This document shows positions 5,822 through 51,514 of a DNA stretch of 55,806 bases, in pieces (the first letter of the stretch is position 1; the number at the start of each line of letters is the position of its first letter). Origin of the DNA: a virus (Duplodnaviria > Caudoviricetes). Both the position numbers and the translations under genes were made by a program. The notes beneath the pieces were generated by a model. That model made no database searches. It worked only from the letters and a program-made list of their open reading frames with translations, and had not been told where the DNA came from. The stretch lies in the IMG/VR virus record IMGVR_UViG_3300018890_000004, positions 1 through 55,806 of that record; one strand, given 5' to 3'.

Positions 5822-6283
5822 AGAAGCGGGGGGTGGGGTGGTGTAACACGATTCTCAATAAGACAATATTGTAACACACGATAGAATAAGCATTTCCAAG
5901 TTTTTCCAGAGTTTTCCAAGTTTTTCCAAATCTTACTATTGAGAAAACCCATATACAGCAATGCTTTTGAGTGTAATTTCCACGTTTCCAAGTTTTCCAC
6001 CTATTCCATATATATTTTTATTTTATATATTCAATACACACGTACACTGATTTACCACTTTTTACACATAAAAACATACTATTCACGCGCAATGGAAGGA
6101 TTTTTTCTTGGAAACGTGGAAATCCTTACCCAGCAAGGGTTATAAGTTGGAAAAGTCTGGAAATACCTGGAATTTTTCTGGAAAACTTGGAAATGCTTAT
6201 CCAGTAAGGCTTCTGAACAGGTAGTGTTTTTGTACTAGTTATAAGCTGTTATTATAGGTTGTGACCACCCACCCCCCGCTTTT
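5822..6283 (+). repeat. iteron cassette copy A (putative replication origin)
   Basis: AAGCGGGGG, then phased TTCCA iterons, an AT-rich core, phased TGGAA iterons and CCCCCGCTT. Homologous to 28095-28564 and 51025-51514. Confidence 0.85.
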
Positions 6284-6430
6284 ATGTCAGACAAAAACTC
6301 GCCAAAAGAGCCTTTGATAGTTACCATACCAACGACCCCACCAAGACCGAGAGAACCCGCTACCCAATCCGGACAGTCGGCAACAGGTGAACCAGTGGAA
6401 AACACAACCAGCCGTCCCTGATTTAGATCA

Positions 6431-6480
6431 CAAAAAGAAAAGCCCCCGATTGAGAGAGTACATCGGGGGCTTTCGTGTTT
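6431..6480. terminator. strong hairpin terminator (best U-tract on minus strand)
   Basis: AAAGCCCCCGAT-loop-ATCGGGGGCTTT. Confidence 0.8.
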
Positions 6481-6489
6481 AACCTTTCT

Positions 6490-6772
6490 ATCAAAGAGTC
6501 TACCACCCCCGCCACGATGAGCCATAGCCCGGGTAAACTTTGGAGGACATACAAAGACTCATTGGAGGGTAACAACTCTCACACGGCTGTTTTTCGCGGA
6601 GGTCACCAACTCCGGAGTTTTTCCCGGCTGCGGGGGATGGGGAAACCCATAGAGCCGTTCCGGCGAACCCCGATTTTATGAGACTCGGAACTTTTAGATA
6701 AACTAGACCACACGCCATATATAGGCAGAGTTCGCCCAGAGGTTTGAACACGTTCATTTTTATTTTATTTTT
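6490..6772. ncRNA. candidate structured non-coding RNA, family not recognised
   Basis: GC-rich island with many nested stems (ATGGG-GAAA-CCCAT, CGGAG/CTCCG, ACGGCT/AGCCGT, GAGGGT/ACTCTC, CTTTG/CAAAG, GAGTCT/AGACTC) and no convincing ORF. Confidence 0.5.
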
Positions 6773-7151
6773 CAAGAGTTTTGTAAGCAGATTTTCGGTA
6801 TACTCCCGTTTCTATTAACCTAGACACAATATTTATGATGTTATGCTCATAATTATTATAAGCATTTTTACTTATATAAGCTGTGGCTATTGTATGGTAG
6901 TAATTCCAGCGAAAGTTTATATCAATCTGCAAACAAGTTTTTAAATTATTTACGTTATTATGAAGAGAGTTACATCAATTTGCAAAGTTTTAGGAGATAC
7001 ATAGCACAAGAGTTAAACTCTGTCAAGTAGTTTGTTTATATCAACTTGACATAATTCTTCTAAATTTGGGTGCTTGCTCATAAACTCTAAAATTGGTCGA
7101 AAATGCGTAGAGATACGTAGAAACTCTGTATAAAATTTGAGATGTACTGAC

Positions 7152-7664
7152 ATGACTAAAACAACCGTTAAGACCATTTATGAAGCAGCTATGGTCTTTA
7201 ATCGCAACCAGTTAGAAGCTAAATTAGGTAAAAAAATTCGTGCTGAACAATGGCGCATACTTCAGGAAATTTGCGAAGAACGTGGTTTGGTTTCAGCAAA
7301 CGGGGTTATTGACAATCAAACTCTTGAAACTTTAGCCACAATTAAAAAGAATTGCGGCAAGTTTACATCTAACAGGGTTGTGTTTAACACCTATTTTGAT
7401 ATCCTTAGCCAGTTGAAAACAAAGGCTACTCTTTACGGGTTTGATATCAAAAATGAGTTGAAAATAACTTGCAAAAAACATAACGGTTTTGAGCCTTCAG
7501 ACTCTACTATTTACGGATGGTTCAACCGTTCAGGGCTTTCTTTCAAAAGTCATAGTCAATACAAACTTGAAGAGGTTACACGCGTCTATATCAAGTGTCT
7601 TTTCGCTAAGCAACCCAAGCGTAAAAGCCCTAACGTTGATAAAGCTGCTTTACTCATCAAATAA
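7152..7664 (+). CDS. hypothetical basic protein, possible HTH DNA-binding
   Basis: Lys/Arg-rich ORF with an HTH-like PSDSTIYGWF segment. Confidence 0.7.
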   Translation: MTKTTVKTIYEAAMVFNRNQLEAKLGKKIRAEQWRILQEICEERGLVSANGVIDNQTLETLATIKKNCGKFTSNRVVFNTYFDILSQLKTKATLYGFDIKNELKITCKKHNGFEPSDSTIYGWFNRSGLSFKSHSQYKLEEVTRVYIKCLFAKQPKRKSPNVDKAALLIK

Positions 7665-7733
7665 AAAATCCCCCGCTTTAATAATCTAAAGCGGGGGCGA
7701 CTAATCCATTTTTCAATCCAAGGTAATTATATC

Positions 7734-8141
7734 ATGTTTAAATGGCTTACAGGTTTGTTTAAGAGGGTTTTATCATTTTTTAAGAAAAAGAAGAAAAGCC
7801 CTAGAAAATACCCTAAATCTTCTACTAAAATTCTTACGGGTTATGTGTATTTTTTTTATAGTAGAAAATTTTCAAGAGTTAAAATAGGATGTTCAAAAGA
7901 CCCTGAAAAGCGTTATAAGGGGATTAAAAGGCATATCACAGATTTACAGGTTTTAGGATTTGTGAAGGGTAGTTTTGAATTAGAGAGTTATTACCTGGAA
8001 CTCTTTAATGAGTTTAGATATCCCATGCCAAAAAAATACAAAACTAAAGGCATAGGTTATACAGAATGGTTTAAGGTTAATAAGGTGTTAATTGAACATC
8101 TAGAACAATCTGTTTTAAAAAAAACCTTAAATATTCGTTAA
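7734..8141 (+). CDS. GIY-YIG-like nuclease (T5orf172/MUG113 type)
   Basis: GYVYF...VKIGCSKDPEKR...E..........F...TEWF motifs. Confidence 0.85.
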   Translation: MFKWLTGLFKRVLSFFKKKKKSPRKYPKSSTKILTGYVYFFYSRKFSRVKIGCSKDPEKRYKGIKRHITDLQVLGFVKGSFELESYYLELFNEFRYPMPKKYKTKGIGYTEWFKVNKVLIEHLEQSVLKKTLNIR

Positions 8142-8274
8142 GCTGCTTGACCGTCCACCCCCCGCTTCTATTGTGGGGTTTCATACTTAGATTATTCTAA
8201 ACCTTGCAAATTAAGTATTGACAAACGTCTAGATGATTGTTAGTATATAGAAAGTTAAGAACAAGGAAACGACC

Positions 8275-8925
8275 ATGCAACCACAAAAAGACCAGTACTT
8301 ACAGCGTTATCTTAAAGAGGTTGATGTAAACAGAGAATTGCAAAAAAAGATTAACGATTTAGAAAGACAAATTGATTCATTTGAGTGTGATTATGGAACC
8401 TCTAATGATAGGATTGATGTTTTGGAGAAGTCGTGTGATGAACTGCGTAAAAAGCTCGATGAGGCTCTAACTTTGCTTGAAGTGCGAAAAAGGATTATTG
8501 ACTATGAAAAAGTTAAAAATCAGTCGTTAACTACCGCGCTAGAGAACGAAAAAGAGCATAACAAGAAGCTTTGTGAGGAAAACATAAGGCTGGCTAACAT
8601 TAACAGTGGTTTTGTTTCTTCCTCTTCACAGGATGATTATGAACAGTTGGACACCTTCCAATTGATTGATAAAATCTCAGTTTTGGAGGAGCAATTAGAA
8701 GTCGTTACACTACGCAGTAACACATACAAAACGCAAAGAGACACGTTTAAGAGAGTGTGTGATGATTACCGTAAGAAATTAGAAGCATATCAAGATATAA
8801 TTACTAAGTCTCTTAACAGTGAAAGTCATAATTTAAGAGAGGAAGTAGAAGACTTGAAGATTGAGAATGCATACTTAAAAATGCTCCTCAAAAATGCCGG
8901 ATACACACCTGAGCAGTTGGGCTAG
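8275..8925 (+). CDS. coiled-coil protein
   Basis: Heptad-rich sequence, own operator-promoter (8218) and AAGGA SD. Confidence 0.8.
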   Translation: MQPQKDQYLQRYLKEVDVNRELQKKINDLERQIDSFECDYGTSNDRIDVLEKSCDELRKKLDEALTLLEVRKRIIDYEKVKNQSLTTALENEKEHNKKLCEENIRLANINSGFVSSSSQDDYEQLDTFQLIDKISVLEEQLEVVTLRSNTYKTQRDTFKRVCDDYRKKLEAYQDIITKSLNSESHNLREEVEDLKIENAYLKMLLKNAGYTPEQLG

Positions 8926-8930
8926 AAATC

Positions 8931-9392
8931 ATGAAAATATATCTGACAAACCCTTACACAAACGAAACAGACACGCTGACTAATTGGGCAATTGTTCTTA
9001 AAACGCCTAGAATCAGTATGTATGCTCGCTGGAGACGTAACCCTAACAGTCATGCTTATGTACTTTTTGGAAGTAATTATAGAGTGATTGCTAAGCTACT
9101 TTATGGCGACGATGCCGCAAAAGTAAAATTGTTAATACAGCCTAAACCGTTTGTTAACCATGAGTTTGTTTTTCGCCCAGACACTGTTATCAACGGCTCT
9201 ACAGTTTCACACGCTGCTTACCTTCCAAATGACCTAGAAACGCCAGTAGTTGATAATATAGTAGAATGGGGTGAAGGCTACGCTTGGAACTGCTACAGTG
9301 GTTTTGAGGGGTCAACTAAAAGCGAAGTAGCAAACAGGGTTTACCATCTGTTGCACGTTGAAAAAAATTATGATGCTTTGACACAAGAATAA
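8931..9392 (+). CDS. hypothetical protein
   Basis: 153-aa ORF coupled to the upstream gene. Confidence 0.75.
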   Translation: MKIYLTNPYTNETDTLTNWAIVLKTPRISMYARWRRNPNSHAYVLFGSNYRVIAKLLYGDDAAKVKLLIQPKPFVNHEFVFRPDTVINGSTVSHAAYLPNDLETPVVDNIVEWGEGYAWNCYSGFEGSTKSEVANRVYHLLHVEKNYDALTQE

Positions 9393-9523
9393 AAAATCCC
9401 CCGCTTCTTACTCAAAAGCGGGGGGCTGACTAACACTTGTTCTTTGAAGATTCAAACTCTAGCATAACACATTTAACCTTGTGATGTCACTATCACAGGG
9501 TTTTTGTTTTGTCAAGAGTAGAA

Positions 9524-9745
9524 CTACTCTATATTGTTTTCCTTGTAATATTCGTTCATTTTTTCGTTCCACTGCTGTGGAGACCACCCAAAATTAGCCT
9601 CCAATCGTTGGGCTATGATTTGGGCTGCAAACGTGGCTGCTGGCAACCCATGGTTAGTTGCCCATATTCCCAAAAGGTGATACTCAAACGGTGTGAGTGT
9701 TATTTCAAACTGGTATCTCTTAGGCTGCTTGCTTGGCGATGACAT
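9524..9745 (-). CDS. small DNA-binding protein, ribbon-helix-helix-like
   Basis: Strand-helix-helix pattern YQFEITLTPFEYHLLGIWATNHGLPAATFAAQII, GAGGA SD, divergent from the 9927 operon. Confidence 0.6.
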   Translation of the reverse strand: MSSPSKQPKRYQFEITLTPFEYHLLGIWATNHGLPAATFAAQIIAQRLEANFGWSPQQWNEKMNEYYKENNIE

Positions 9746-9926
9746 ATAGATAATCCTCTAGACGTTTTGCGAGTTTATGCGAGTTTTTCTATGGTAAAAA
9801 ACTCTCGACCCCCTTGTAAACGGGTTTCAAAGGGGTTATATTAAAAGAGTAGCAAGCGAGTTAAGAAACTCGCAGCCACATAAAGGAATTCTAACACAAA
9901 CCACCAATACATAAGGAATAGCTATC

Positions 9927-10610
9927 ATGTCAGATTTAGATAGAGTAGTCAAAAACCTTTATGACAGATTATACAAAAAAGGTTTCAACGTTCCCAAGAA
10001 CACAATCAAAGCTGCTGTTTTAGAAGTTTCAGCAGAAGGCACCCTGACCGATGAGCAAAAAAGCCAGATTGTAGAAAAGTTTATGGCTGTTACAGAAGCG
10101 GGGGTACAGGATGACAGTCAAGCTGCTTTACCATCTGATGAAGAAGTACTGAACGCTTATCACAATCAACCCCCTGTTGAGTCTTCGGCTATAACTCCCA
10201 CAACTCCCCCCGCTTCTACTCCTGGAGCATTGACCACATCACAAGCTAGAGAGATTGTTTTTGACCGTTGTGAGTCTATGGGTATTGAGCTTAAAACATC
10301 TGAAATCAAAGCAATTGTACAAGAGATTCAAGCCCAACATCTTGATGCACAGGCTGCTGTTAACTACACCATAACGGTTATCAAGCAGTTCATCAATGCT
10401 CAAGAGCGCCAATATACCTCTAATTTAACAGAGGGGATGCAGGAACTAGTACAGCACGTAAACACATCATTTAGAAATCGTGAAGCTGTAACTGTTAGTG
10501 CCTTTGAAAAGGTAAAGGGGGAATTGACAGAGGCAGCCTCTGCTTACAAAAGTTCTACAGTCAACTATACAGCAGACCTTCAGGAGTATTTCTCGGATAA
10601 AATCGCTTAG
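9927..10610 (+). CDS. hypothetical helical protein
   Basis: 227 aa, AAGGA SD, first gene of the membrane/ATPase cluster. Confidence 0.8.
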   Translation: MSDLDRVVKNLYDRLYKKGFNVPKNTIKAAVLEVSAEGTLTDEQKSQIVEKFMAVTEAGVQDDSQAALPSDEEVLNAYHNQPPVESSAITPTTPPASTPGALTTSQAREIVFDRCESMGIELKTSEIKAIVQEIQAQHLDAQAAVNYTITVIKQFINAQERQYTSNLTEGMQELVQHVNTSFRNREAVTVSAFEKVKGELTEAASAYKSSTVNYTADLQEYFSDKIA

Positions 10611-10690
10611 TCAAAAGCAAATTTTGGACTACTGCATCTACTTTTCAATAGGTTTACCCGTCGTTTTCTTATTCTCAATCATGCTTATTT

Positions 10691-11053
10691 ATGGAACGGA
10701 TACCGCAAAAAATAGGGGAGAACCTACAACCCCTACAGGATTTGAAGAATCTATCACCGACTACAAAATTCAAAATATCCAGCAACGGCGATATTGAAGT
10801 AGAAGGAAAGATGGACGAAGAAGCAAAAGAGATAATTACAACAGCGCTACAGCAAGCAGAATTTTACAGGCAAAAAGCTGCACAACTTGAACAAGAAAAA
10901 ATAAAAAAGTCTTCTGAAGTTGACGCTGTTGTCGTTGTTTTTATCTCTTCATTGCTGGCTGTTACTATGTTGCTTTCTTACATGGTAGTGTCAGCAGTAT
11001 CATCAAAGTTCACTAAACAATCATCTATCACGGTAATTATTAAAGGAGTCTAA
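10691..11053 (+). CDS. membrane protein (C-terminal TM helix)
   Basis: Hydrophobic AVVVVFISSLLAVTMLLSYMVV. Confidence 0.7.
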   Translation: MERIPQKIGENLQPLQDLKNLSPTTKFKISSNGDIEVEGKMDEEAKEIITTALQQAEFYRQKAAQLEQEKIKKSSEVDAVVVVFISSLLAVTMLLSYMVVSAVSSKFTKQSSITVIIKGV

Positions 11054-11055
11054 TC

Positions 11056-11502
11056 ATGTTCAATAATCAACAGTCAACGGGTTCTGGTTCTGGAAGCGGG
11101 GGAAGCATCATCAAGTCTGGTTACAATATTGGCGGTTCTCTGTCTGGTATGGGAGGGCTTAGAGACGGGTTTAAGGAAGCTCTGACACTTCAAGCTAGCG
11201 ATGCAAATATGGAGACAGTCGGCAAGTTTGCTGAAATTGAAGGCAAGTATAGAGGTTTTAACGCCATGCTTAGACGTGCCTCTAAGATGAAGCTGGCAGC
11301 AGGTAGGGCAATTAGTCAAACTTACGGTACTTATTTGGGTCATGCTAACCAAGCAGCTCAGCAAGAGCTTAACTGGCAAAAAACAACTGCTACCAACCTT
11401 GAGCGTATGAGTGAAACTATGGTTGATTTACACTCTACTGAAAAATCACACAGTGGTTTTGCTCTTTACTGCGACCAAGCCGACAAGCTAATCCAATATT
11501 GA
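11056..11502 (+). CDS. hypothetical protein, Gly/Ser-rich N-terminus
   Basis: AAGGAG SD, 148 aa. Confidence 0.75.
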   Translation: MFNNQQSTGSGSGSGGSIIKSGYNIGGSLSGMGGLRDGFKEALTLQASDANMETVGKFAEIEGKYRGFNAMLRRASKMKLAAGRAISQTYGTYLGHANQAAQQELNWQKTTATNLERMSETMVDLHSTEKSHSGFALYCDQADKLIQY

Positions 11503-11566
11503 GAACGAAACGGGCATCTACGCCCGTAGTAGTCTAAAAGGCTACCTGACGAGTTCTAGAGGTTAA

Positions 11567-11818
11567 ATGAGCGCTAAATCTTTCACAATAGGCAACTACA
11601 CCATAACCTATGCTGCCATTAGTCACATAGTTTGGGGGTATGATGAGCATCGTAATTTAGAGGTGCAATTTGTGATGATTCCAGGTTCCATTATCCGGCT
11701 TACATTTGGCTCTGTAACCTCTGGATTAGAAAGAATGATAGAAGTACTGGTGAGGAACAGTTTACTACCCTCATCTGGTCTTCCCGACGCTGTAGATGAG
11801 TTTCTAAATAGGATTTAA
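11567..11818 (+). CDS. hypothetical protein
   Basis: GAGG SD, 83 aa. Confidence 0.7.
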   Translation: MSAKSFTIGNYTITYAAISHIVWGYDEHRNLEVQFVMIPGSIIRLTFGSVTSGLERMIEVLVRNSLLPSSGLPDAVDEFLNRI

Positions 11819-11822
11819 ACCA

Positions 11823-12176
11823 ATGACTTATCCAAAAATTACCCGTATCACTTGCGAAGAGTATCAAGAACGTATTGTAGAGTTATCCAAAAGCTACAAC
11901 ATACCCTTAAGCAATCGTCTAAGCGTTTATCAGTGTGGACTTGCTGAGGAAGCGGGGGAAGTAGCCGGACTACTAAAACGTTTTTATCGCGGTGACACCG
12001 ACCATAGCACGTTTGCCCCCCGCTTAACAAAAGAGATAGGCGATATGTTCGCTTATGCTGTTTTGTTAGCACGCGTTTTTAACATAGATTTTGAGGATAT
12101 TTTGTTAGAAAATCTTGAAAAAATTGAAAAGCGTTTAGAAGAAGGTAAACAATTAGGTGAGGGTAGCGACCGATGA
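11823..12176 (+). CDS. mazG: MazG-like nucleotide pyrophosphohydrolase
   Basis: GLAEEAGEV...KEIGD motif and a C-terminal G.GSDR tail. Confidence 0.88.
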   Translation: MTYPKITRITCEEYQERIVELSKSYNIPLSNRLSVYQCGLAEEAGEVAGLLKRFYRGDTDHSTFAPRLTKEIGDMFAYAVLLARVFNIDFEDILLENLEKIEKRLEEGKQLGEGSDR

Positions 12177-12523
12177 GTGTTGACAATCGTGCTGTACTAT
12201 TTCTTGGATATCAACAGTTTGAGGTGCTAAGTACAAATCCATTGATGGATGGTGATGAGGTTGAGAAATATTTGCAAGATTTAAATTGTGATAGAGGCTA
12301 CTATGAGCATGGCTCTATACTTTATAGACCGATTGTATGGTATTGGTCATCTTCACATGAAGAATTTCTAATAGGTGTTTTACTTGGCGAATCTGGCTCT
12401 TATAAGTCAGTACAGCTTTGTATGGACGATTTAATGATAAACGTTCCCGTACACCGTGAGCGTTTGAGGGATATTTTCAATCATCGAGAACCCAAGCTTT
12501 ATCTATTTAATCAACAAGATTGA
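12173..12523 (+). CDS. hypothetical protein
   Basis: ATGA overlap with mazG. Confidence 0.7.
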   Translation: MSVDNRAVLFLGYQQFEVLSTNPLMDGDEVEKYLQDLNCDRGYYEHGSILYRPIVWYWSSSHEEFLIGVLLGESGSYKSVQLCMDDLMINVPVHRERLRDIFNHREPKLYLFNQQD

Positions 12524-12606
12524 GTAAAGCTGCTTGACAAAACACAATCGTCTAGATAATCTTATAGATAGCTAGACGATTTTACATAAATATAGAGGAA
12601 AAAATC

Positions 12607-12924
12607 ATGGACGAACAACAAGCCCCACAAAAAGTAAACCACATCTTTTGGATAAGCATTCGCTGGTCAACTTATACAGCCATTTCAACAATAATTTGCT
12701 TAGCCTGCATATTACCTGTTACTCGTTGGGCTGCTGGCTTGGTGCTTCTCTGTTACACAGGTTATGCAGTATCAGAGGTGTTTAAAGATTACGCACGGAT
12801 ACAACAAGAGCGCCAGCTACAAGGCAAGACAGCTTTTAACTTTGCCGTCATTAACAATGGTCTAGAGTTTGTCTATTTGGTTATGGCTGTTTTAATCGGT
12901 CTTCTCTGCGGTCTTGGATTGTAA
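12607..12924 (+). CDS. membrane protein (about 3 TM helices)
   Basis: Three hydrophobic segments, GAGGA SD. Confidence 0.8.
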   Translation: MDEQQAPQKVNHIFWISIRWSTYTAISTIICLACILPVTRWAAGLVLLCYTGYAVSEVFKDYARIQQERQLQGKTAFNFAVINNGLEFVYLVMAVLIGLLCGLGL

Positions 12925-12951
12925 TAATTACTTAAATTTTAGAGGTGTGAA

Positions 12952-14685
12952 ATGTTAAAGAAACTTACAGGATTATCAGGTAAACCTTTCCTTGGCGATG
13001 AAATTGACCAACTGGCGGTAGAAGTTATTCAAAAGCGGTTTATACAAGCAGCTTTGATGATATCTGCTGCTGCATTTCCTATCACTGCGGCATTTGTTCC
13101 AAACCAGCCACAGCCTTGGAAACTAGGTCAACTGGGTTTAGGTTCTTTGTTGGGTCTTGCCTCTGCTTACGTGTCTAAACAGCGTGAAGAAGGAGAAATA
13201 AGATATGAAAGCAATTTGAAGCTTAACCGTTCGGTCTATAAGCATGAAGTTACAAACAGGTACGCAAAGGAGCAAATGATAGGAGATGTAGCGCGTGATG
13301 CCTCTGTAAAACGCGCACTGGTTCAAAGTGTAGACGCTATAACTTTACACGGAGTATTTGCATATGCAGAAAGATTTGGGTTGCCACAAGGATTGTTTAG
13401 CGACCTTGTACCAGCACAGCCCCCCGCTTCTGAAGATGAGGTAAAAACAGCCAGAGAGTTAAAAAATATAGGTATCGCTTCGCCAAATCAAGATTTAATT
13501 GATACTCACATAGATAAAACTGCTGCTGCTGTTATTCGGTCAATGGCTGCTAAATATCCTGATTATGTCAGAATAGATGGTCGTTGGGTGCTTGAGCTTA
13601 TCGAGTCATCAACAGAGCATAAAATGGGTAAGCGAGCTAATCACCACTTTTTGATAACTGCTGAAACCCAAGCAGGCAAGTCAACGCTAGCTGGCGTTTT
13701 GGCTCGTGGCATAGCTCAACGTAGCCAAGCTCCTGCTGTTGTTGCTGGTCATGATGCTAAAAAAATTCCAGGGATGAAAGATATTACAAAATGGTTGTGT
13801 CAATTTACGGAGGGATATAAAATTGACGGTTATGTTAACTCTCAAAAATGGGCTACTTTCCTTAGCGGACTTATGGATGAGCAATTTGAATTAGGTTCAG
13901 AAGCGGGGGTGACTATGGAGGGGGTGAGAGAGTTGGTAATTATACAGGATGAACTTAATACCATTTTTGGAGGTGGTAAAGGTTTACCCGGAAAAATAGA
14001 ACAAAAAACAGCAGAAATGTTACAGGGTATTTGGCTGTACTTGGTAACAAACTATGCAGGGTTAAAAACTCACGGGATTTTTATGGGGCAGTCACCATTG
14101 TCGGGTGACACAGGGTTTAGCAGACCGTCTTTGAAAAATCTATGTTTTATTGCCATGGGTCAAAATTCATCATACATATTGGATAACCCTAAAAACTTCT
14201 TGAGCCATACAAATGATGAGGTTTTAAAAGTCTTATCCACAGCTTGTGAAATGTTTGAGAAAGAGGAGCTTAGGTACGCTTTGGTACGCCCTACACGTGG
14301 TAACGCCTATGTGGCTATAATCCCCGAATTTGACACTGAAGGCATCTTAAACGGCAACCTAGACAGCCTAGATGTTGATTCTGAAGAAGTGGTAGATGAT
14401 GATGAACCTGAAACCGTAGCACCTCAAAAAGCGCCAGTGGCAAAAGTGGAAACACAATCACCAAAAGTTACTGCGCCATGGGAAACCACACCACCCCCCG
14501 CTTCTGAGTCTTCAGATGTTAACTTGATATTTGCCAAAATGAAATCCTGGATTGAAGAGTGTTACCTGCAATACGGTAGATATCCAAGACCGGAGCATAT
14601 CAAGCAAGTTTGGGAGGCAGAAACAAAAACGATACTTTCTGAAACAACTTTACAGTATTTACTTGAAAAGTTGAATTTAAGATGA
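12952..14685 (+). CDS. membrane-anchored P-loop ATPase (FtsK/HerA/VirD4-like)
   Basis: Two N-terminal TM segments, Walker A AETQAGKST, Walker B LVIIQDE, IFMGQS motif, Pro/acidic linker and small C-terminal helical domain. Confidence 0.75.
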   Translation: MLKKLTGLSGKPFLGDEIDQLAVEVIQKRFIQAALMISAAAFPITAAFVPNQPQPWKLGQLGLGSLLGLASAYVSKQREEGEIRYESNLKLNRSVYKHEVTNRYAKEQMIGDVARDASVKRALVQSVDAITLHGVFAYAERFGLPQGLFSDLVPAQPPASEDEVKTARELKNIGIASPNQDLIDTHIDKTAAAVIRSMAAKYPDYVRIDGRWVLELIESSTEHKMGKRANHHFLITAETQAGKSTLAGVLARGIAQRSQAPAVVAGHDAKKIPGMKDITKWLCQFTEGYKIDGYVNSQKWATFLSGLMDEQFELGSEAGVTMEGVRELVIIQDELNTIFGGGKGLPGKIEQKTAEMLQGIWLYLVTNYAGLKTHGIFMGQSPLSGDTGFSRPSLKNLCFIAMGQNSSYILDNPKNFLSHTNDEVLKVLSTACEMFEKEELRYALVRPTRGNAYVAIIPEFDTEGILNGNLDSLDVDSEEVVDDDEPETVAPQKAPVAKVETQSPKVTAPWETTPPPASESSDVNLIFAKMKSWIEECYLQYGRYPRPEHIKQVWEAETKTILSETTLQYLLEKLNLR

Positions 14686-18922: not shown

Positions 18923-18928
18923 AACCAT

Positions 18929-46173: not shown

Positions 46174-47649
46174 TTACCTAGCTGTAATCAGATGGTCGTC
46201 AGTCTCAATAACAGTAGGCTCTGAGGCTGACGGTGTTGCAGGTGGCTCTATAACTGGGATTTCTTCTTCGCTTGCAGTTGCTTCAGGTGCCACAGTGGTT
46301 GCACTTTTGGCATCAGTTACAACAGGTGGTAAAAACTTTTGAGTAGTTGCAGCAAACTTATGAAGCGTTTTGTGGTATTTGTCGTAATTGTCACCGCCAG
46401 CCTCTTTAATATCATCGGCAATTTTAGCGATGTCACTCATAGCAATGGTGACTAGCTCATTAATACCAGCAAACAGTGTGAGAACAGTATCAGCAGCTAA
46501 AACGTTTGTATGCTGCTTAACTAGCTCTAAACTGCTTTCTAAATGCTCCCTAACGTTTTTGACATTTTCAAGTTTTGCCACATCAGAAGGTATGCTGTAA
46601 ACCCGTGAAATAACTTGCTCAGCATCTTGCACATAACGCTCTTTAGTAACAGTAGGCTTGGGAGAAGCGCCACCTGTAGAACCCGGGGCGGGGGGAGTTG
46701 AACCTTCCGGAGAAGTAGAACCAGTACTACCCCCCGCTTTAGCTGCATCATCCTTGGCTTTTGCTTCCTCAGTCAAATCATTAAAATAGTCAATAATAGC
46801 ACTTTTGTAAATGCTGAAGTCTTCAAAAATTTCTACTTTGCCTTCTTTATGCTTTAGAGCGTTTGTTTGAGCCTTTATCCACAATGTGTCTAAATACTTA
46901 TCAATTGATTGATGCAGTTGTTGCTTATCTAAGCCAGGCTCAAACCCTGTTACTTTTTGTATTAGCGTTGCGGCTGCGTCAACACTGATTTTTTCATTTC
47001 TGATATATTCATGAAGCGTTGGGCTTCCATTTTCAATTACCGTGTTATATTGGCTGAGGTTTTGCTTTGTGCGCTTGAACATCAAACAAAGCTTACGAGT
47101 TGCTTCACCTCTAGCTTTCTTTTCATTCATGCCAGATGCAACAAATTCATTTTGAAATTGTATCTTAAGATTATAGGCTAAATTAGCTATATCATAAGGA
47201 TTATGTTTTTTTGTAAAGTCATTGGTTGATACCTGAAAATCAATAGCATCTTCAAGTGTCAACGGTTCTGTAAAGAGCTTATAGGGAACAAGCTTAAAAT
47301 TGTCATCTTTAAGCTCTAAAGTAACTTTGCTGTCTTTTTTCTCTTCACCACCCTCTACTTCTTGTTTTCTTTCAACCCATAACTCAAAAAGCGCTCTAGT
47401 GCGGGTGTTTCCTGAAACAATATATTTTATACCAGTTTCAGGGTCTTGCTCAACTGCAAAAGCCTCTTTTACTTCAATATCATGGTTAGTGTTAACCAGC
47501 GCCACACGCTTTTCAGCAACTGAATCGGTATCTGTAGTTTGACGAATATAAAACTCTGGGCGACAAAAAGCCCAAGTCTTATCTTCAAAAAATGCTTTAT
47601 GTAAATCACCCACTGAAATGTAAAACGTTTCTTCTGATAGTGTAGCCAT
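46174..47649 (-). CDS. ParB-like protein (ParB/Srx N-domain plus HTH)
   Basis: YIVSGNTRTRAL resembles the GxxRxxA patch. Followed by HTH-like KLCLMFKRTKQNLSQY and L..YI...KISVDAA. Confidence 0.65.
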   Translation of the reverse strand: MATLSEETFYISVGDLHKAFFEDKTWAFCRPEFYIRQTTDTDSVAEKRVALVNTNHDIEVKEAFAVEQDPETGIKYIVSGNTRTRALFELWVERKQEVEGGEEKKDSKVTLELKDDNFKLVPYKLFTEPLTLEDAIDFQVSTNDFTKKHNPYDIANLAYNLKIQFQNEFVASGMNEKKARGEATRKLCLMFKRTKQNLSQYNTVIENGSPTLHEYIRNEKISVDAAATLIQKVTGFEPGLDKQQLHQSIDKYLDTLWIKAQTNALKHKEGKVEIFEDFSIYKSAIIDYFNDLTEEAKAKDDAAKAGGSTGSTSPEGSTPPAPGSTGGASPKPTVTKERYVQDAEQVISRVYSIPSDVAKLENVKNVREHLESSLELVKQHTNVLAADTVLTLFAGINELVTIAMSDIAKIADDIKEAGGDNYDKYHKTLHKFAATTQKFLPPVVTDAKSATTVAPEATASEEEIPVIEPPATPSASEPTVIETDDHLITAR

Positions 47650-47873: not shown

Positions 47874-48401
47874 CTAGTATGGCGGCTCTCCCATCATGTT
47901 GCTTTTGTCGTAGTGGCATACAAAGTAATCCCATGAGCCGTCTGAGGCTAAACCACAGCCTACACGGTTTGCTTTCAGCATTTGGGTGAAGTGTGCTACA
48001 AGTTCCCATCGTTGTGAGCCATCTTTGACTACATCAGGGAAAATTCCATACCGATAAAATTTAATTTCAGCGCCCCAAGAGTTGACCATATAAGCAAGGT
48101 CATAGCGTCCGGCTGTGCCTTGCCATAAGTTCTCACCTGGTCTACTGTGAATCAGTTTATGATGTACTGATGCCAGTTGTTTAGCCCAAGCATCGGCAGA
48201 AAGTGCTAGATTTTCATCCCATGCAATAGCCCCTAATCCCTGAGCATATCTATACTCGTTGTGAACGCTTAAAACAGTATTGATATCCACGGTCGCCCCC
48301 TCTCTAAATTCGTACCTATAAAACATTAATAGAGCTACCAATATTGCAGATATAGCAACATTGATAAGAATTATTCGCCTAGCGGTTAGCTTCATTGTCA
48401 A
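47874..48401 (-). CDS. CAP (SCP/PR-1) domain protein with N-terminal TM
   Basis: HN.YR...G...I.WD..LA..A..WA, GENL, W..E, HFTQM, VGCG, VCHY signatures. Confidence 0.9.
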   Translation of the reverse strand: MTMKLTARRIILINVAISAILVALLMFYRYEFREGATVDINTVLSVHNEYRYAQGLGAIAWDENLALSADAWAKQLASVHHKLIHSRPGENLWQGTAGRYDLAYMVNSWGAEIKFYRYGIFPDVVKDGSQRWELVAHFTQMLKANRVGCGLASDGSWDYFVCHYDKSNMMGEPPY

Positions 48402-48535: not shown

Positions 48536-49042
48536 ATGGCAAGGAAAGCAGTAGGAACCCCAACACTTTTCTTTAATATGCCCGTTGACCAGCAGGGAGG
48601 GCAAATAATCGCAGGCTTAAACAAGGGTAGGCTGAGCCTCTTTGATGACTTGGGTATGATTGGACGTTGGGTCTTCACATCATCCTTTGATGGGCGACAG
48701 AAGGTTAATGATTGGGAATTGGTGGGCGGCTTGCTACCTCCCACATCTGCAATGCCTGGTCAATTGTGGTATGAAGTCGGCACAAACCTTATCAAACAAC
48801 CTGGTCAACCAGTTGATGAAGGTTTCATAATCTATTACAAAGGGGAAATTGAATTTAAAACTGCAAAAGGTTCCAGCCGTTCACAGCTGATGATTCACAA
48901 AGATAGCAACTACAAAACGGCTCCAGGGTCTTATGGATGCCTTGTAGGGCTGGAAGAAGAATATGTGGATATGCGCGACACTTTTATCCAGGCTTGTGGA
49001 CATTTGAAACGCGTACGCATGGGTGGTGTATACAGTTTTTAA
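48536..49042 (+). CDS. putative L,D-transpeptidase-fold peptidoglycan enzyme (endolysin candidate)
   Basis: RSQLMIHKD.......GSYGCL matches the HxnSxGC catalytic motif. Confidence 0.6.
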   Translation: MARKAVGTPTLFFNMPVDQQGGQIIAGLNKGRLSLFDDLGMIGRWVFTSSFDGRQKVNDWELVGGLLPPTSAMPGQLWYEVGTNLIKQPGQPVDEGFIIYYKGEIEFKTAKGSSRSQLMIHKDSNYKTAPGSYGCLVGLEEEYVDMRDTFIQACGHLKRVRMGGVYSF

Positions 49043-49782
49043 TAAAAGTGAAATATGTAAGGATTCCGAAAACTGTAAGAATCCCCAAATTTGTCTGTCA
49101 CCCCTCTTAAAGCAGCTTCTATAGAGGGGTTGTCTTTTCCATCAGTAGAGTTGTAAAAAGCTACCGTATACCCGACAATATATCGAGGTTTACCCTGTTC
49201 AAAAGCAGAGTACAACGGACAAGCAGCAGCATGATTAAAATCAAACTTGGCAACGCCACGCCTAAAATAAACCAGCAACTCTGGTGTAATTTTATTGGAT
49301 AGACAACCACGCTCCGTCATAGTTTTGACCAGTGGCTCTAAAATTGTGTCTAAACCCTGTTCAAACGGTCTCAATGAGTCTAACTTATCCAAAGGCAATG
49401 ACCATGACCAGATGAGCGTTCCAGCGTTCTTATATTGAGGGTTTAATATCATGTTGCCAGTACTTCTATCATAAATAATTACGACAAAAGAAGACTTTAC
49501 ATCAACATATTCATCACGCAGACTTGCCAGGTTACGCCAATTTTTAACAGCCTGTTCCACATATTCAATATGAGTAAGCGGTTGCTGGCGAGTGATAAGC
49601 CTAACATTATATTGCTCACCCAATGTAGTATTTATCAAAACATAATAGGAAAGACCGCCAAAGGTCAAAACTACCAGCGTTACCAACAATAATTTTGCAA
49701 CCCACACTGAAAACTTGTCACCACGGGCGGGTAATAAATCCTTAATTAAGTCAAAAAGAGTTTGGATAAAACCTAGAAACAT
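49039..49782 (-). CDS. membrane protein with GAF-like soluble domain (holin candidate)
   Basis: One N-terminal TM, then AAACPLY...IVGYTVAFY GAF-like strands. Architecture resembles T4 holin T. Confidence 0.5.
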   Translation of the reverse strand: MFLGFIQTLFDLIKDLLPARGDKFSVWVAKLLLVTLVVLTFGGLSYYVLINTTLGEQYNVRLITRQQPLTHIEYVEQAVKNWRNLASLRDEYVDVKSSFVVIIYDRSTGNMILNPQYKNAGTLIWSWSLPLDKLDSLRPFEQGLDTILEPLVKTMTERGCLSNKITPELLVYFRRGVAKFDFNHAAACPLYSAFEQGKPRYIVGYTVAFYNSTDGKDNPSIEAALRGVTDKFGDSYSFRNPYIFHFY

Positions 49783-49852
49783 ACGCCAAACCTTTAATTA
49801 ATAAAACCCCCACAGAAGCGGGGGGTGGCTGGGAGTTATTACAAATGCGAGG

Positions 49853-50341
49853 TTATTTAATATCTATCTTAAACGTTCCCGGTAACGCATCGCCAGTGGC
49901 AGGGGCAACATCAATTGTATCGGGGGTTGTAGGGATGGGCAAAGGTGAAGGCAAAGGGGAATCAGAAGGCAAAGGTTGCTCAGGTGTCGGGATAGATGGA
50001 GCCAAACCAAGGATTGCAGTTTTAACAGATGTTAAAGTTTGCTTCTGAGTTTGGAGCATTTGAAGGGCTGACTGTATTTCTTGCTCATCGACATCACCGT
50101 CAAGCGCAGCCTGCAAAACATCTTTAATTTGAACGCTTGCACGGTCAACGGTATCAAGCACGTCAGCAGATGCTAAAACGTTAGCCTGGATACCTTGCAT
50201 GACATCTTGGAAATTTGCCATTGTTGCCACCTGTAAAATTTCAATCTTGGTGATTATTTTTGTAGTGTCGGCTGATATTTTGCGTAACAAACGTATAGCC
50301 TCAACTATGTCAAATACACCCTTAAACATATTCTGAATCAT
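49853..50341 (-). CDS. hypothetical helical protein with Pro-rich tail
   Basis: 162-aa ORF. The start may be internal (MANFQD). Confidence 0.65.
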   Translation of the reverse strand: MIQNMFKGVFDIVEAIRLLRKISADTTKIITKIEILQVATMANFQDVMQGIQANVLASADVLDTVDRASVQIKDVLQAALDGDVDEQEIQSALQMLQTQKQTLTSVKTAILGLAPSIPTPEQPLPSDSPLPSPLPIPTTPDTIDVAPATGDALPGTFKIDIK

Positions 50342-51024
50342 GACAATAATAAAAACAATAATTACATTTTAACAGTACTCAAAAATAACCAATTTTCTAA
50401 TAATTGACTATTTTTGAGTAAAGCAGCTTTATTCAGATTTAACCAGCCTTATCAAGATTATATGTTAACAATTTTCTAACGTAAGAACGCGATATATGTT
50501 CTATCTCTGCAATCTGTTTCTGAGTCATTTTTTCCTCATAGTACATATGTTTTATTCTCCTCACACGGTCAGCTTGCAACATTTTGTCCATAAAATACCT
50601 CCAAATACTGTTGACAAATTAAACTTATTGTGCATAGGGAAACACCATGTTAGTAGCCTTCACCATAGTACTACTTAGTATAAATACTTTCACAATTTAA
50701 TTTATTTTTTTGCATAGTAAAAAGCTTGACAAAATGCACGTGTTATAATATATGAAACCTCTTATGATGGGTGCATATATCAGAAACACTTATATTCCTT
50801 AACTAGGCGTGCAATTACCAAATACATAGGCATAACTTACAAAACCCATGTTTCTAGAGCATGGGTTTTTTTTGGCTTTTAAGGGGGTTCACCCTGCTAA
50901 ACGATGATTGACCCATAAACATAAAAAACCCCTGCTTAAGACGGCTTAGGCGGGGGCTGCTTGTCACTATGGATTGTTGACCGCCAACTGCTTGTGAGAA
51001 TAGCGATAGGCAGAATTATGACAC

Positions 51025-51514
51025 AAAAGCGGGGGTTTGAGGCTGCTTGTAACACATTCTCAATAAGGTTTTACGTACTACATACGCAGCAGTAAGGGTT
51101 TCAGCCCATGCCAGAAACATTTCCAGGTTTTTCCAGGTTTTTCCAAACTTTTCCAAGTTTCACTATTGAGAAAACCCTTATAAAGCGGGGGGTGTGGGTG
51201 TAATTTCCACAGTTCCAAGTTTGAAAGCGAAATCTTATATAGATATTTTTATGAATTTGATACACGTAGATTCCAAAACTAAAAATTCTATACATCAAAT
51301 CATAGTCTTCACGCGCATAGGTTACTAAAAATTCTTGGAAATCTGGAAAAGCCTTGCTGGTAAGGGTTATAAGTTGGAAATGCTTGGAAAAACCTGGAAT
51401 TTTCCTGGAAAACTTGGAAATGCTTGCTGTGTAAGGGTTTCAAAGAGGGTGTACGTTTGTACTAAAAATAAGTCAAACTTATCGTTTATGACCACCCCCA
51501 CACCCCCCGCTTCT
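51025..51514 (+). repeat. iteron cassette copy C
   Basis: Same architecture and shared blocks as copy A (TGTAACAC.ATTCTCAATAAG, ACTATTGAGAAAACCC, TTCACGCGCA, AAGGGTTATAAGTTGGAAA, CTGGAAAACTTGGAAATGCTT). Confidence 0.85.

Follow-up and report, generated by a model that had tools for sequence, protein, structure and literature searches.

Three homologous inverted-array cassettes in an uncultured cyanophage genome, candidate replication origins or initiator-loading sites

Which function do three copies of a long non-coding repeat cassette serve within a single phage genome of 56 kb? The genome is that of an uncultured, siphovirus-like cyanophage of biocrust metagenome origin, encoding a tape measure and no sheath, and the window analysed here is the entire stretch of 55,806 nucleotides, a circular assembly of 55,679 bp with a terminal overlap of 127 bp. 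A first-pass annotation had read the cassettes as origins, built of short repeats around an AT-rich core and bracketed by a convergent pair of a 9-mer. We provide an analysis of their anatomy, conservation and surroundings, compare them with the repeats of related phages and weigh replication against other possible roles.

Anatomy and conservation of the cassettes

All three cassettes are non-coding, comprise about 470 bp and contain the following elements:

5822-6283, + strand: cassette A (9-mer, outer TTCCA array, inner array, AT-rich core, inverted TGGAA arrays, 9-mer)
28095-28564, - strand: cassette B, inverted relative to A and C
51025-51514, + strand: cassette C, 0.67 kb past the 3' end of the primase-helicase gene
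5824-5832 (+) and 6273-6281 (-): AAGCGGGGG 9-mer pair of A
28096-28104 (+) and 28554-28562 (-): AAGCGGGGG pair of B
51027-51035 (+) and 51504-51512 (-): AAGCGGGGG pair of C
51183-51191: extra internal 9-mer in C
5893-5928, + strand: outer left array of A, 4 TTTCCA units, 10-bp period
28439-28484, - strand: its counterpart in B, 5 units
51120-51155: its counterpart in C, 4 units
5978-6008, + strand: inner left array of A, 4 TTCCA units, 8-9 bp apart
28369-28390: its counterpart in B
51205-51217: its counterpart in C
6009-6092: AT-rich core of A (72% AT over 6000-6095)
6082-6091: invariant block TTCACGCGCA, end of the A core
About 28288-28368: core of B
About 51218-51335: core of C
6093-6192, + strand: right arm of A, inner TGGAA units at 6093, 6109 and 6117
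6138-6153: invariant block GGTTATAAGTTGGAAA, right arm of A
6148-6192: right outer array of A, 5 TGGAA units
6229-6245 (+) and 28135-28151 (-): block TTTGTACTAGTTATAAG in A and B
51456-51472: variant of TTTGTACTAGTTATAAG in C

The three copies proved to be homologous and to share one layout of inverted arrays around a core at 72-76% identity, as first annotated. Self-BLAST of the window aligns A with B at 76.1% identity over 489 columns (inverted), A with C at 71.8% over 408 columns (direct) and B with C at 75.8% over 447 columns (inverted); in a three-way alignment the mean column identity is 80% and the limits of homology coincide with the 9-mers. The convergent bracket is also present, every cassette ending in an inward-pointing AAGCGGGGG. 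This 9-mer is part of a genome-wide, evenly spaced motif system with 80 occurrences in the window versus 0.22 expected, and the cassette termini, forming a 19-nt inverted repeat of 89% complementarity, consist of the same 9-mer plus its usual G-rich extension.

The arms contain 16 (A), 16 (B) and 14 (C) TTCCA/TGGAA pentamers of strict polarity, all units of the left arm being TTCCA and all units of the right arm TGGAA in each cassette. The repeat period of about 10 bp given in the first-pass annotation applies to the outer arrays (9-11 bp) but not to the inner arrays with their units 8-9 bp apart; the left inner array of C is degenerate. An AT-rich core exists in all three, its length of roughly 100 bp being corrected to about 85-120 bp at 71-74% AT. 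The least stable 60-bp window of the genome lies in the core of B, while the core of C ranks 10th and that of A falls outside the top 12, while the AT content of several other intergenic stretches equals that of the cores.

The arrays are exclusive to the cassettes. TTTCCA-N4-TTTCCA occurs 12 times in the window versus 0.02 expected, each time inside one of the three cassettes, clusters of at least four TTCCA/TGGAA units per 120 bp are found there and nowhere else in the genome, and the density of TGGAAA is 34-fold that of the remaining genome. Selection on all three copies, as suggested earlier, is borne out by the invariance of 70 of the 90 repeat-unit columns compared to 221 of the 398 other columns (Fisher p = 8e-5). 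In a population of natural variants (run X2), seven differences fall in B, none of them within a unit core, a count which on its own is not significant. Assembled contigs of the source runs break inside cassette B.

Genomic neighbourhood and candidate binding proteins

As the record is circular, the earlier spacings of about 22, 23 and 10 kb are refined to 22.3, 22.9 and 10.5 kb on the 55,679-bp circle. One cassette, B, does sit within the structural region, flanked by head genes (protease, major capsid) and by lysis/tail genes. The following features are located near the cassettes or encode possible binders:

52188-54713, - strand: primase-SF3 helicase of 841 aa, candidate initiator
50439-50591, - strand: sigma-70 region-4-type helix-turn-helix protein of 50 aa, 0.43 kb from C, alternative candidate binder
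46174-47649: ParB-like ORF, homologue of an A-1(L) protein annotated as ParB-family
51599-51615, - strand: terminator-like hairpin just outside C
50841-50869, + strand: counterpart hairpin
5062-5081, + strand: counterpart hairpin
6443-6458, - strand: counterpart hairpin
28687-28711, - strand: counterpart hairpin

The hairpins face each cassette from outside, so that incoming transcription would stop before the cassette. Neither the phage's own TTGACA-N17-TAGTAT promoters nor any of its 21 own AAGCTGCTTKAC sites nor a conserved sigma-70-type promoter is found inside the cassettes. The head operon has its own promoter-like sites outside B (28031-28002), and C shows terminators on both sides and no convincing downstream gene. 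The anatomy described above, with its selective conservation, is restricted to three transcriptionally insulated intergenic sites. The proposed check for GC-skew inflections came out negative, the skew simply following gene direction with no separate inflection at the cassettes.

The primase-helicase, the gene of which adjoins cassette C, joins a primase to an SF3 (P4/D5-type) helicase and has DUF5906 and Parvo_NS1-type SF3 NTPase domains, showing 27.5% identity to the primase of phage N-1 over residues 189-831. Database names of homologues of its helicase domain include 'phage/plasmid primase, P4 family'. A model of the C-terminal 152 aa (pLDDT 77) shows weak similarity to winged-helix DNA-binding domains and to the ASFV primase-helicase C-terminus, the best Foldseek match having E = 0.18 and none being at or below 0.001.

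Related repeats in N-1, A-1(L) and Elbi

The replication module, i.e. PolB, the primase-SF3 helicase and about nine other genes, is common to this phage and the Nostoc/Anabaena myophages N-1, A-1(L) and Elbi. Sequence comparison identified 11 ORFs in common with N-1 or A-1(L), including PolB (43-45% identity), primase, an FtsK/HerA-like protein, RusA and the ParB-like protein, and no detectable capsid in common. N-1, A-1(L) and Elbi each carry two inverted copies of a repeat of 617-724 bp, 98.3-99.7% identical, in which an AT-rich core lies between inverted short repeats. The units are phage-specific (AAGAC in N-1, TGTAAC in A-1(L) and Elbi), enriched 18-53-fold and clustered only in these inverted repeats, and in A-1(L) and Elbi two convergent copies of an 11-mer, hyper-abundant in the respective phage, additionally lie about 450-485 bp from each other. 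The anatomy of the cassettes recurs, with different repeat units, in relatives having replication genes in common. A 12-16-nt core of the TTTGTACTAGTTATAAG block is also present in the N-1 repeat at the equivalent outer position (in B the shared stretch is ACATTTGTACTAGTTA); as the sequence similarity between cassettes and N-1 consists of this one short block, homology would rest mainly on architecture.

The distance between the primase start and one of the repeat copies is 0.2-0.45 kb in N-1 and Elbi. A LuxR-type gene with two HTH motifs directly adjoins one copy in N-1 and A-1(L), and in all three phages outer repeat ends lie within about 40 bp of gene starts, e.g. that of thymidylate kinase. 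The primase-helicases of A-1(L) and Elbi, which have the identical unit TGTAAC, show 66% identity over their full length, and those of N-1 and A-1(L), with differing units, align only in the N-terminal 428 aa (42.5%). The helix-turn-helix protein adjacent to the repeat (57% versus 34-38%) and an AP2-like protein (78% versus 34%) follow the repeat type as well, while PolB and helicase are 78-91% identical in all pairs. Judged by these identities, repeat type co-varies with the primase-helicase and two small DNA-binding proteins and not with PolB; since the helix-turn-helix and AP2-like proteins co-vary as well as the primase does, a regulator-operator relationship fits this co-variation equally.

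According to the accessible text of Shi et al. (bioRxiv 10.64898/2026.02.14.705889), the repeats of nine A-1(L)/N-1-like phages flank a segment of about 30 kb present in both orientations in one stock, as found by PCR, Sanger sequencing and read mapping, and an invertible segment of about 30 kb is also contained in the Elbi announcement (PMC8297451). Within that portion of the preprint, the role of inversion boundary is the sole experimentally shown property of these repeats, and its main text has no occurrence of 'iteron'. Both accounts (PMC8297451; bioRxiv 10.64898/2026.02.14.705889), in their accessible parts, give the repeats only as inversion boundaries; the origin-like inner anatomy of the N-1, A-1(L) and Elbi repeats comes from the present analysis.

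In architecture the cassettes appear to match these inverted repeats bounding the invertible segment of Anabaena/Nostoc phages, their nearest relatives, a connection which the first-pass annotation did not make. Both are intergenic, of 0.46-0.72 kb and inversely oriented, with an AT-rich core flanked by inverted short repeats and, in A-1(L) and Elbi, two convergent copies of the motif abundant in that phage (450-485 bp apart there), and their carriers have PolB, primase and about nine other replication-module genes in common. In contrast, there are three copies here and two there, with 72-76% rather than 98-99.7% identity, spacings of 22, 23 and 10 kb rather than about 30 kb, TGGAA as the unit and a siphovirus-like virion rather than that of myophages; isomers have been demonstrated in A-1(L)-type phages, whereas the present cassettes are known from assembled sequence alone.

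Proposed role in replication and competing readings

Because of the anatomy, the selection, the recurrence in relatives and the primase-SF3 helicase encoded beside C, we tentatively regard replication origins or initiator-loading sites as the best single reading. From the original proposal the origin-like anatomy and the selection stand, and the anatomy recurs in replication-module relatives, while GC skew adds no separate signal and the core of A is not among the 12 least stable windows. The cassettes would be cis-acting protein-binding elements of the DNA-replication module, most likely bidirectional replication origins, or else auxiliary initiator-binding sites accompanying one or two active origins; three origins in 56 kb would be unusual. 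A phage-encoded sequence-specific protein may coat the helically phased TTCCA/TGGAA arrays of both arms. The prime candidate is the C-terminal part of the primase-SF3 helicase, with the small helix-turn-helix protein encoded near C and, from the shared module, the AP2-like and ParB-like proteins as alternatives. As the arms are inverted, two bound complexes would face each other across the AT-rich core, which could melt, resulting in two helicases being loaded head to head; binding, melting and initiation are what we infer from this layout. Since the cassettes resemble repeats bounding an invertible segment, the inverted pairs A/B and B/C could also support inversion; at 72-76% identity such events are expected to be much less frequent than in N-1, A-1(L) and Elbi.

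Alternatively, a phage helix-turn-helix regulator might use the arrays as operators or enhancer-like sites, switching flanking operons or setting transcription-unit boundaries with no role in replication. A and B each follow the terminator of one operon and precede the start of the next, co-directional one, which comprises replication genes in the case of A and head genes in that of B, the gene for the sigma-70 region-4-type protein is close to C (0.43 kb), the LuxR-type gene abutting the N-1/A-1(L) repeat co-varies with repeat type and the outer ends of the relatives' repeats abut gene starts. We nevertheless judge such a purely regulatory role unlikely, given the lack of a conserved sigma-70-type promoter or own AAGCTGCTTKAC site inside the cassettes, the promoter-like sites of the head operon outside B, the position of C between terminators with no convincing gene to serve and an element that travels with replication genes across different virion types; moreover, a one-directional promoter would not need symmetric inverted arrays around an AT-rich core. 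Still less probable is a primary function as recombination substrate, in which the short repeats bind a recombination or synapsis protein and the A/B and B/C pairs invert to give genome isomers, as in A-1(L)-type phages. The inverted orientation of B, homology stopping exactly at the 9-mers, the RusA and HNH genes encoded by the phage and the ~30-kb segment seen in both orientations in nine relatives, as far as the accessible preprint text goes, would fit. However, an identity of 72-76%, compared to 98.3-99.7% in the relatives, makes a poor substrate for homologous recombination and gives no sign of continuing homogenisation, exchange between the direct repeats A and C would delete 10 or 45 kb, the 40 ORFs scanned include no serine or tyrosine recombinase, and conservation is concentrated in the phased, putatively protein-binding units rather than being even.

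Readings as a MITE or as an RNA are disfavoured. Three intergenic copies with a 19-nt terminal inverted repeat (89% complementary) and foldback-like arms built of sub-repeats could recall a selfish non-autonomous element spread within the phage genome, which we deem very improbable: target-site duplications are absent at all three copies, the terminal repeat is merely the genome-wide 9-mer with its G-rich extension, the copies are old (72-76% identity) yet retain their units, and equivalent elements occupy conserved positions in distant relatives. The check for a host MITE was also negative, an invariant cassette 21-mer having no exact match in 185,579 species genomes, blastn with the cassettes finding nothing in phages or plasmids and IMG/VR and JGI metagenomes giving only chance coding matches. 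Plasmid centromeres also contain phased short repeats in blocks, e.g. R1 parC (two blocks) and pSM19035 (three heptad arrays). The two blocks of phased repeats here resemble these, and with the ParB-like ORF at 46174-47649 they might suggest centromere-like or genome-organising sites at which a ParB-like or ribbon-helix-helix-type protein binds the arrays and segregates or compacts a plasmid-like prophage or replicating DNA. Such sites seem highly doubtful, as the ORFs scanned revealed neither a partition NTPase nor an integrase, the ParB-like ORF matched no Pfam family, an AT-rich core and strict arm inversion are not features of the R1 parC and pSM19035 centromeres and the relatives are described as lytic.

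Origins or initiator-loading sites, the reading that we prefer, would have analogues in several systems. P4 alpha unites a primase and an SF3 helicase in one protein, the C-terminal part of which binds DNA, and P4 has short binding sites around an AT-rich region at one ori and one crr. The candidate initiator type, repeats surrounding an AT-rich region and multiple iteron loci in the genome are alike, whereas repeats and origin have no sequence similarity to those of P4, three equivalent symmetric cassettes replace one ori and one crr, and the presumed likeness to alpha comes with no significant structural match. Herpes simplex virus has three origins, oriL and two copies of oriS in inverted repeats, each an AT-rich-centred palindrome with inverted sites for a virus-encoded origin-binding helicase, in a genome that isomerises; three copies, AT-rich centre and inverted flanking sites are shared, but virus and proteins are unrelated and the analogy is one of layout only. 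Inverted polar sites facing an AT-rich unwinding element and head-to-head helicase loading, as proposed here, are likewise found at archaeal oriC, where the sites are ORB elements, and at SV40/papillomavirus origins, where they are pentanucleotides for SF3 helicases, although the proteins are not the same and our cassettes have far more sites per arm (7-8), helically phased. In the yeast 2-micron plasmid, two inverted repeats split the circle roughly in half, and inversion during replication can turn theta into double rolling-circle amplification. Inverted repeats dividing a circle are found here too, while the yeast plasmid has a dedicated Flp recombinase and a separate origin and the 40 phage ORFs scanned have no recombinase. 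In the accessible text of Shi et al. (bioRxiv 10.64898/2026.02.14.705889), the 2-micron plasmid is cited solely as an example of inversion.

Architecture and conservation of the three cassettes

We find the three homologous non-coding cassettes A (5822-6283, +), B (28095-28564, -) and C (51025-51514, +) where the first-pass annotation placed them and with the layout it described, i.e. an inward-pointing copy of the 9-mer AAGCGGGGG at each end and arrays of TTCCA/TGGAA pentamer units inverted around an AT-rich core. In an alignment of the three copies, homology spans the interval bounded by the two bracketing 9-mers, these included, and does not extend past them. The cassettes are 462-490 bp long, A/B and B/C being inverted relative to each other, with pairwise identities of 76.1% (A-B, inverted), 71.8% (A-C) and 75.8% (B-C, inverted). 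The window, an entire IMG/VR virus record, has identical first and last 127 bases, identifying it as a circular assembly of 55,679 bp, and on this circle the copies are spaced by 22.3, 22.9 and 10.5 kb.

Elements of the cassettes, ordered in cassette orientation
1: AAGCGGGGG with a G-rich extension
2: invariant block GTAACAC-ATTCTCAA
3: outer array of 4-5 TTTCCA units with 10-bp period
4: 45-bp spacer holding invariant TTGAGAAAACCC
5: inner array of 2-4 units, 8-9 bp apart
6: core of 85-120 bp, 71-74% AT, terminating in invariant TTCACGCGCA
7: 2-3 inverted units
8: spacer holding invariant GGTTATAAGTTGGAAA
9: outer array of 5 TGGAA units
10: block TTTGTACTAGTTATAAG
11: CCCCCGCTT

Each cassette contains 14-16 TTCCA/TGGAA units, arranged with a 9-11-bp period in the outer arrays, i.e. 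helically phased. A two-unit pattern has 12 occurrences in the window compared to 0.02 expected, all of them within the cassettes, and unit clusters are absent from the rest of the genome. The proposal that the iterons are conserved while the spacers have diverged is borne out by the alignment, in which invariance holds for 70 of 90 unit columns compared to 221 of the 398 remaining ones (p = 8e-5); the subset made up of units in A, B and C alike is necessarily invariant and was not counted as evidence. A variant population from a second run differs from B at seven positions, none of them in the unit cores, where ~1.2 would be expected, so that this difference is not significant.

Terminator-like hairpins lie outside each cassette and would halt incoming transcription:

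5062-5081 (+) and 6458-6443 (-), outside A
28711-28687 (-), outside B
50841-50869 (+) and 51615-51599 (-), outside C

Consensus scans revealed no conserved sigma-70 promoter inside the cassettes, which also contain none of the 21 AAGCTGCTTKAC sites. A promoter family composed of AAAGCTGCTTGACAA, 17 nt and TAGTAT is found at 2636, 2926, 12529, 19342, 46108 (-) and 55476, and a second repeated motif besides the 9-mer, AAGCTGCTT(G/T)AC, is present in 21 copies, at these six positions, at 48406 (-) and at 14 others, the strong, sigma-70-type TTGACA-17 nt-TAGTAT promoters being a subset of these 21. The promoter-like sites of the head operon lie between B and the first head gene. Between the promoter hexamers we observed a TCTAGA-centred palindrome, which looks like an operator, and the motif copies at 1016, 3229, 8142 and 39907 are followed by CCCCCGCTT 8-12 nt downstream.

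The two arms of the inner inverted repeat pair without a mismatch in A (17 nt; 5976-5992 / 6107-6123) and in B (28369-28390 / 28259-28287) and imperfectly in C; A and B differ at two positions per arm (CG/CG vs GA/TC), which is one compensatory double change keeping both perfect. The stretches without convincing genes around A (5355-7137, 1.8 kb) and C (50591-52188, 1.6 kb) are unusually long, and the short ORFs within them, e.g. 6284-6421 and 51681-51989, match no family and may be spurious.

An abundant 9-mer and the replication module shared with Nostoc/Anabaena phages

The bracketing 9-mer AAGCGGGGG is present in 80 copies in the window compared to 0.22 expected, 40 on each strand (sites e.g. 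435, 1036, 1605 ... 55340), within a wider consensus tAGAAGCGGGGGg. Within ORFs of at least 75 aa we find 57 of the 80 copies, 32 on the coding and 25 on the opposite strand. Their orientations alternate beyond chance (54 runs vs 41 expected, z = 2.9) and the spacing per strand is even (CV 0.55 and 0.56), none of 2000 simulations being equally regular. The 9-mers that bracket the cassettes therefore belong to a genome-wide system. The convergent bracket pair spans 458 bp in A, 467 bp in B and 486 bp in C, the latter with an additional 9-mer between its ends, and two further adjacent convergent pairs in the genome fall into the range of 440-500 bp.

The ORF-internal copies mostly share one reading frame. 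Divergent 9-mer pairs 9-10 nt apart at 7670-7697 and 9398-9424 are predicted to form hairpins right after genes, preceded by an A-run, and are terminator-like structures. Convergent pairs with exactly 29 nt between them occur at 30963/31001 in the tape-measure gene and at 40604/40642 in the gene 40125-41348. Full-text literature matched the 9-mer only in unrelated primer listings.

The gene map was obtained from PHROG and Pfam scans of 40 ORFs:

77-5355 (+), small early genes and an HNH endonuclease
7137-21896 (+), replication block with SNF2-type helicase and family-B DNA polymerase (PolB)
25382-26413 and 26956-27969 (-), head genes, i.e. major capsid and protease, respectively
28747-33036 (-), endolysin, tail protein and tape measure
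34317-40128 (+), terminase and portal
minus strand, block with RusA-like and ParB-like genes (ParB-like protein at 46174-47649)
52188-54713 (-), primase fused to an SF3 helicase, 841 aa, with DUF5906 and Parvo_NS1 NTPase domains

PolB shares 43-45% identity with its counterparts in the Nostoc/Anabaena myophages N-1, A-1(L), YongM and Elbi, and the primase, which has three homologues in the protein database, is 20-28% identical to the primases of N-1/A-1(L)/Elbi-type phages (27.5% to N-1). Comparison of the ORF sets by BLASTP identified 11 ORFs common to the window phage and N-1/A-1(L), all of them with roles in replication or recombination, and the capsid had no match among 50,697 phage records. 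The phage is therefore a siphovirus-like cyanophage with the replication module of the A-1/N-1 group. The only runs found to contain it are three DNA runs of a single biocrust metagenome study, available as assembled contigs, and no RNA run is listed.

N-1, A-1(L) and Elbi each carry exactly one large dispersed repeat:

N-1, 19656-20378 and 49999-49276, 98.3% identical
A-1(L), 20506-21222 and 53848-53133, 98.7% identical
Elbi, 21808-22424 and 52973-52357, 99.7% identical

These are the inverted repeats already in print as unexplained inversion boundaries. For Elbi, a 29,932-bp inversion between 504-bp inverted repeats was described (PMC8297451), and PCR, Sanger sequencing and read mapping showed that both segment orientations coexist in four phage stocks (Shi et al., bioRxiv 10.64898/2026.02.14.705889). 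As far as the accessible text of this preprint goes, the mechanism of inversion is left open, the repeats are said to share no substantial similarity, "iteron" is absent from the main text and "origin", among the matches listed, never refers to replication.

The cassettes resemble these repeats in being intergenic, 400-700 nt long, inverted and located in a phage of the same replication-gene lineage, whereas they are present in three copies of 72-76% identity, compared to two copies of 98.3-99.7% identity ~30 kb apart in the relatives. The interior of the N-1 repeat consists of three AAGAC units, a 71% AT core and five inverted GTCTT units; in the repeats of A-1(L) and Elbi, inverted TGTAAC/GTTACA units directly flank a core of 81% and 73% AT, respectively, with more arrays farther out. 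The short units of the relatives are 18-53x denser inside the large repeats than elsewhere and form clusters only there. A block of 12-16 nt (ACATTTGTACTAGTTA in B) is common to the cassettes and N-1 at the same outer position beside the outer array, a 16-mer match of this kind having a probability of ~2e-4, by hand estimate, to arise by chance between stretches this long.

Each relative has an abundant motif as well, i.e. TGATTCCGGGG in N-1 (78 copies) and TGACTCCGGGG in A-1(L) (74 copies) and Elbi (84 copies), and cross-counts between the phages are 0-2, although N-1, A-1(L) and Elbi infect the same host. These motifs are equally frequent per strand, alternate in orientation (z = 2.8-5.2; N-1 and A-1(L)) and have a per-strand CV of 0.42-0.70 in all three phages. 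Abundant motifs in A-1 and N-1 were noted earlier and, in the accessible part of that work, suggested to be promoters or stoperators (Chenard et al. 2016). In A-1(L), a convergent motif pair at 20583 (+) and 21057 (-) brackets the core over 485 bp. The core in Elbi is bracketed by a convergent pair ~450 bp apart, the left member being an N-1-type variant that has only two occurrences in Elbi and presumably sits once per repeat copy. The nearest convergent pair in N-1 is 1.3 kb apart, showing that bracketing by the abundant motif is not universal.

The outer end of one repeat copy lies ~40 bp or less from the thymidylate kinase start codon in N-1, A-1(L) and Elbi, and the other copy adjoins a LuxR-type helix-turn-helix (HTH) gene (N-1, A-1(L)) or an antirepressor gene (Elbi). 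Primase and repeat are separated by a transposase gene in A-1(L).

Co-variation and candidate binding proteins

Most proteins of N-1 and A-1(L) are 60-90% identical. Repeat unit and abundant motif are both common to A-1(L) and Elbi, and N-1 differs in both. The primase-helicase follows this split, with 66% identity over the full length vs 42.5% over the N-terminal 428 aa only, as do the two-HTH LuxR-type protein beside one repeat copy (57% vs 34-38%) and the AP2-like protein adjoining the primase (78% vs 34%). PolB and helicase, which are 78-91% identical in all pairs, do not follow it. On the basis of co-variation, we regard the primase-SF3 helicase, which is encoded beside C, the helix-turn-helix protein, and the AP2-like and ParB-like proteins of the relatives as candidates for the cognate initiator.

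The helix-turn-helix candidate of the window, a sigma-70 region-4-type protein of 50 aa (50439-50591, -), is encoded 0.43 kb from C; its similarity to the two-HTH protein of N-1 is faint and concerns the second HTH there (E = 0.003, single comparison), and it shows no similarity to the two-HTH protein of A-1(L). The last 152 residues of the primase were modelled from a four-sequence alignment (pLDDT 77) as a helical bundle with a β-hairpin region. Foldseek of this model returned nothing at E <= 0.001, an RFX winged helix (E = 0.18) ranking best together with the C-terminal part of the ASFV primase-helicase, and a PDB sequence search with the primase gave matches at P-loop level only. In comparison to the P4-type ori/crr system, the primase-SF3 helicase domains are present and the similarity of the C-terminus to a winged helix is not significant.

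Interpretation of the cassettes and the abundant motif

We tentatively favour, at somewhat less than even confidence, that the cassettes serve as replication origin or initiator-loading site. This is suggested by the element being non-coding and insulated from transcription, by polar candidate protein-binding units facing an AT-rich centre, by selection maintaining three old copies, by its occurrence only in phages that have one replication module in common, irrespective of virion type, and by the unit sequence changing along with the primase-helicase. Against an origin stands that the cores differ only modestly from other sequence in their stability: B contains the genome's least stable 60-bp window, C ranks 10th, A is outside the top 12, and other intergenic stretches are as unstable as the cassette cores. 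GC skew follows gene direction, which likewise speaks against it, and the sole demonstrated property of the related repeats is inversion. A dedicated recombination site would draw on the same data and be compatible with an origin, yet we judge it improbable, since A and C form a direct pair, exchange between which would be deleterious, and since the low identity of the copies (72-76%) indicates a lack of homogenisation and makes frequent homologous inversion unlikely here. A regulator-operator system, equally based on these data and compatible with an origin, is unlikely, if somewhat less so; a centromere is a weak reading that we consider hardly credible.

A mobile element, i.e. a MITE or foldback element, is highly improbable: terminal inverted repeats are present, but they are the genome-wide 9-mer, and no copy is flanked by a target-site duplication. 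The scenario of a many-copy host MITE with such duplications, which the first-pass annotation had named as the outcome that would overturn its proposal, also disagrees with the lack of the invariant 21-mer from genome contigs, a search covering exact matches only, which diverged copies could escape. In IMG/VR and JGI metagenomes the 21-mer matched only a LamG-like coding region. A three-unit pattern gave >113 low-complexity matches in IMG/VR, none with the 9-mer, a 16-mer scan 42 single matches at chance level, and the block shared with N-1 11 matches, all in coding regions. The extended 9-mer occurs in five contigs, which we rejected as relatives for having 1-2 copies each. The cassette had no blastn match in phages and plasmids, and protein-guided locus searches with the primase alone, primase alignments and a PolB alignment, the last in genome contigs, found nothing. 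A structured RNA finds no support either: Rfam returned nothing at gathering score and a tRNA scan nothing, the consensus fold is the long inverted repeat only, and the covariation term is unfavourable (+2.36 kcal/mol). As to coexisting orientations of the bounded segment, Logan contigs of the source run stop at 28210 and resume at 28269, inside B, and apparent joints are accounted for by the repeats themselves.

Extending the origin interpretation, cassettes and abundant motif may form one replication system in which the motif primes, the cassettes are origins and isomers follow, a model we put forward as speculative and rather doubtful. According to it, the phage-specific 9-11-mer (AAGCGGGGG; TGATTCCGGGG in N-1; TGACTCCGGGG in A-1(L) and Elbi) would be recognised sequence-specifically by the primase-helicase of the respective phage as a signal for priming, and this would explain the even per-strand spacing (~1.4-1.8 kb), the independence of gene direction and the co-variation of the phage-specific motif sequence with the primase. 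The two inward-pointing copies of a cassette would determine where a bidirectional origin receives its first two primers, each outward-moving 3'-5' helicase priming the displaced strand and the primer becoming the leading strand of the opposite fork. A convergent pair ~460-485 bp apart would be self-consistent with the geometry expected for a 3'-5' SF3 helicase-primase. With origins in inverted copies on a circle, theta replication could moreover turn into double rolling-circle replication in the manner of the 2-micron plasmid, which would explain the coexisting isomers of A-1(L)-type phages.

New is the presence of three diverged copies in a siphovirus-like relative, and their diverged state makes the functional parts visible, i.e. 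phased repeats, AT-rich core, conserved blocks and bracketing motif. It suggests that the repeats of the A-1(L)/N-1/Elbi-type phages act as a cis-element of the shared PolB/primase-helicase replication module. In the accessible text of the papers cited, and among the matches listed for cyanophage iterons, origins and inverted repeats, which contained nothing relevant, neither the shared origin-like anatomy nor the motif bracketing nor the co-variation with the primase-helicase is described. The origin interpretation would link the genome isomerism of A-1(L)-type phages to replication and offers a hypothesis that can be tested for the ~80 evenly spaced motifs specific to each phage; a tractable system for cheap tests is Anabaena PCC 7120 infected with A-1(L) or Elbi.

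Further observations concern host and accessory genes. The HIP1 palindrome GCGATCGC has no copy in the window compared to 42 in N-1, and a HIP1-containing 9-mer, AGCGATCGC, is present in 38 copies in A-1(L) and 45 in Elbi; the absence of HIP1 from the window suggests that the biocrust phage may infect a host other than a HIP1-rich cyanobacterium. Possible homing elements are the genes for a T5orf172 (GIY-YIG-like) protein and for two HNH-type endonucleases (7734-8141, 3324-4232 and 18929-19294, all +), of which the HNH gene at 18929-19294 (+) shares 42% identity with an HNH gene in A-1(L). The ORF 47874-48401 (-) encodes a domain of the CAP/cysteine-rich secretory protein family (Pfam E = 8.5e-20).
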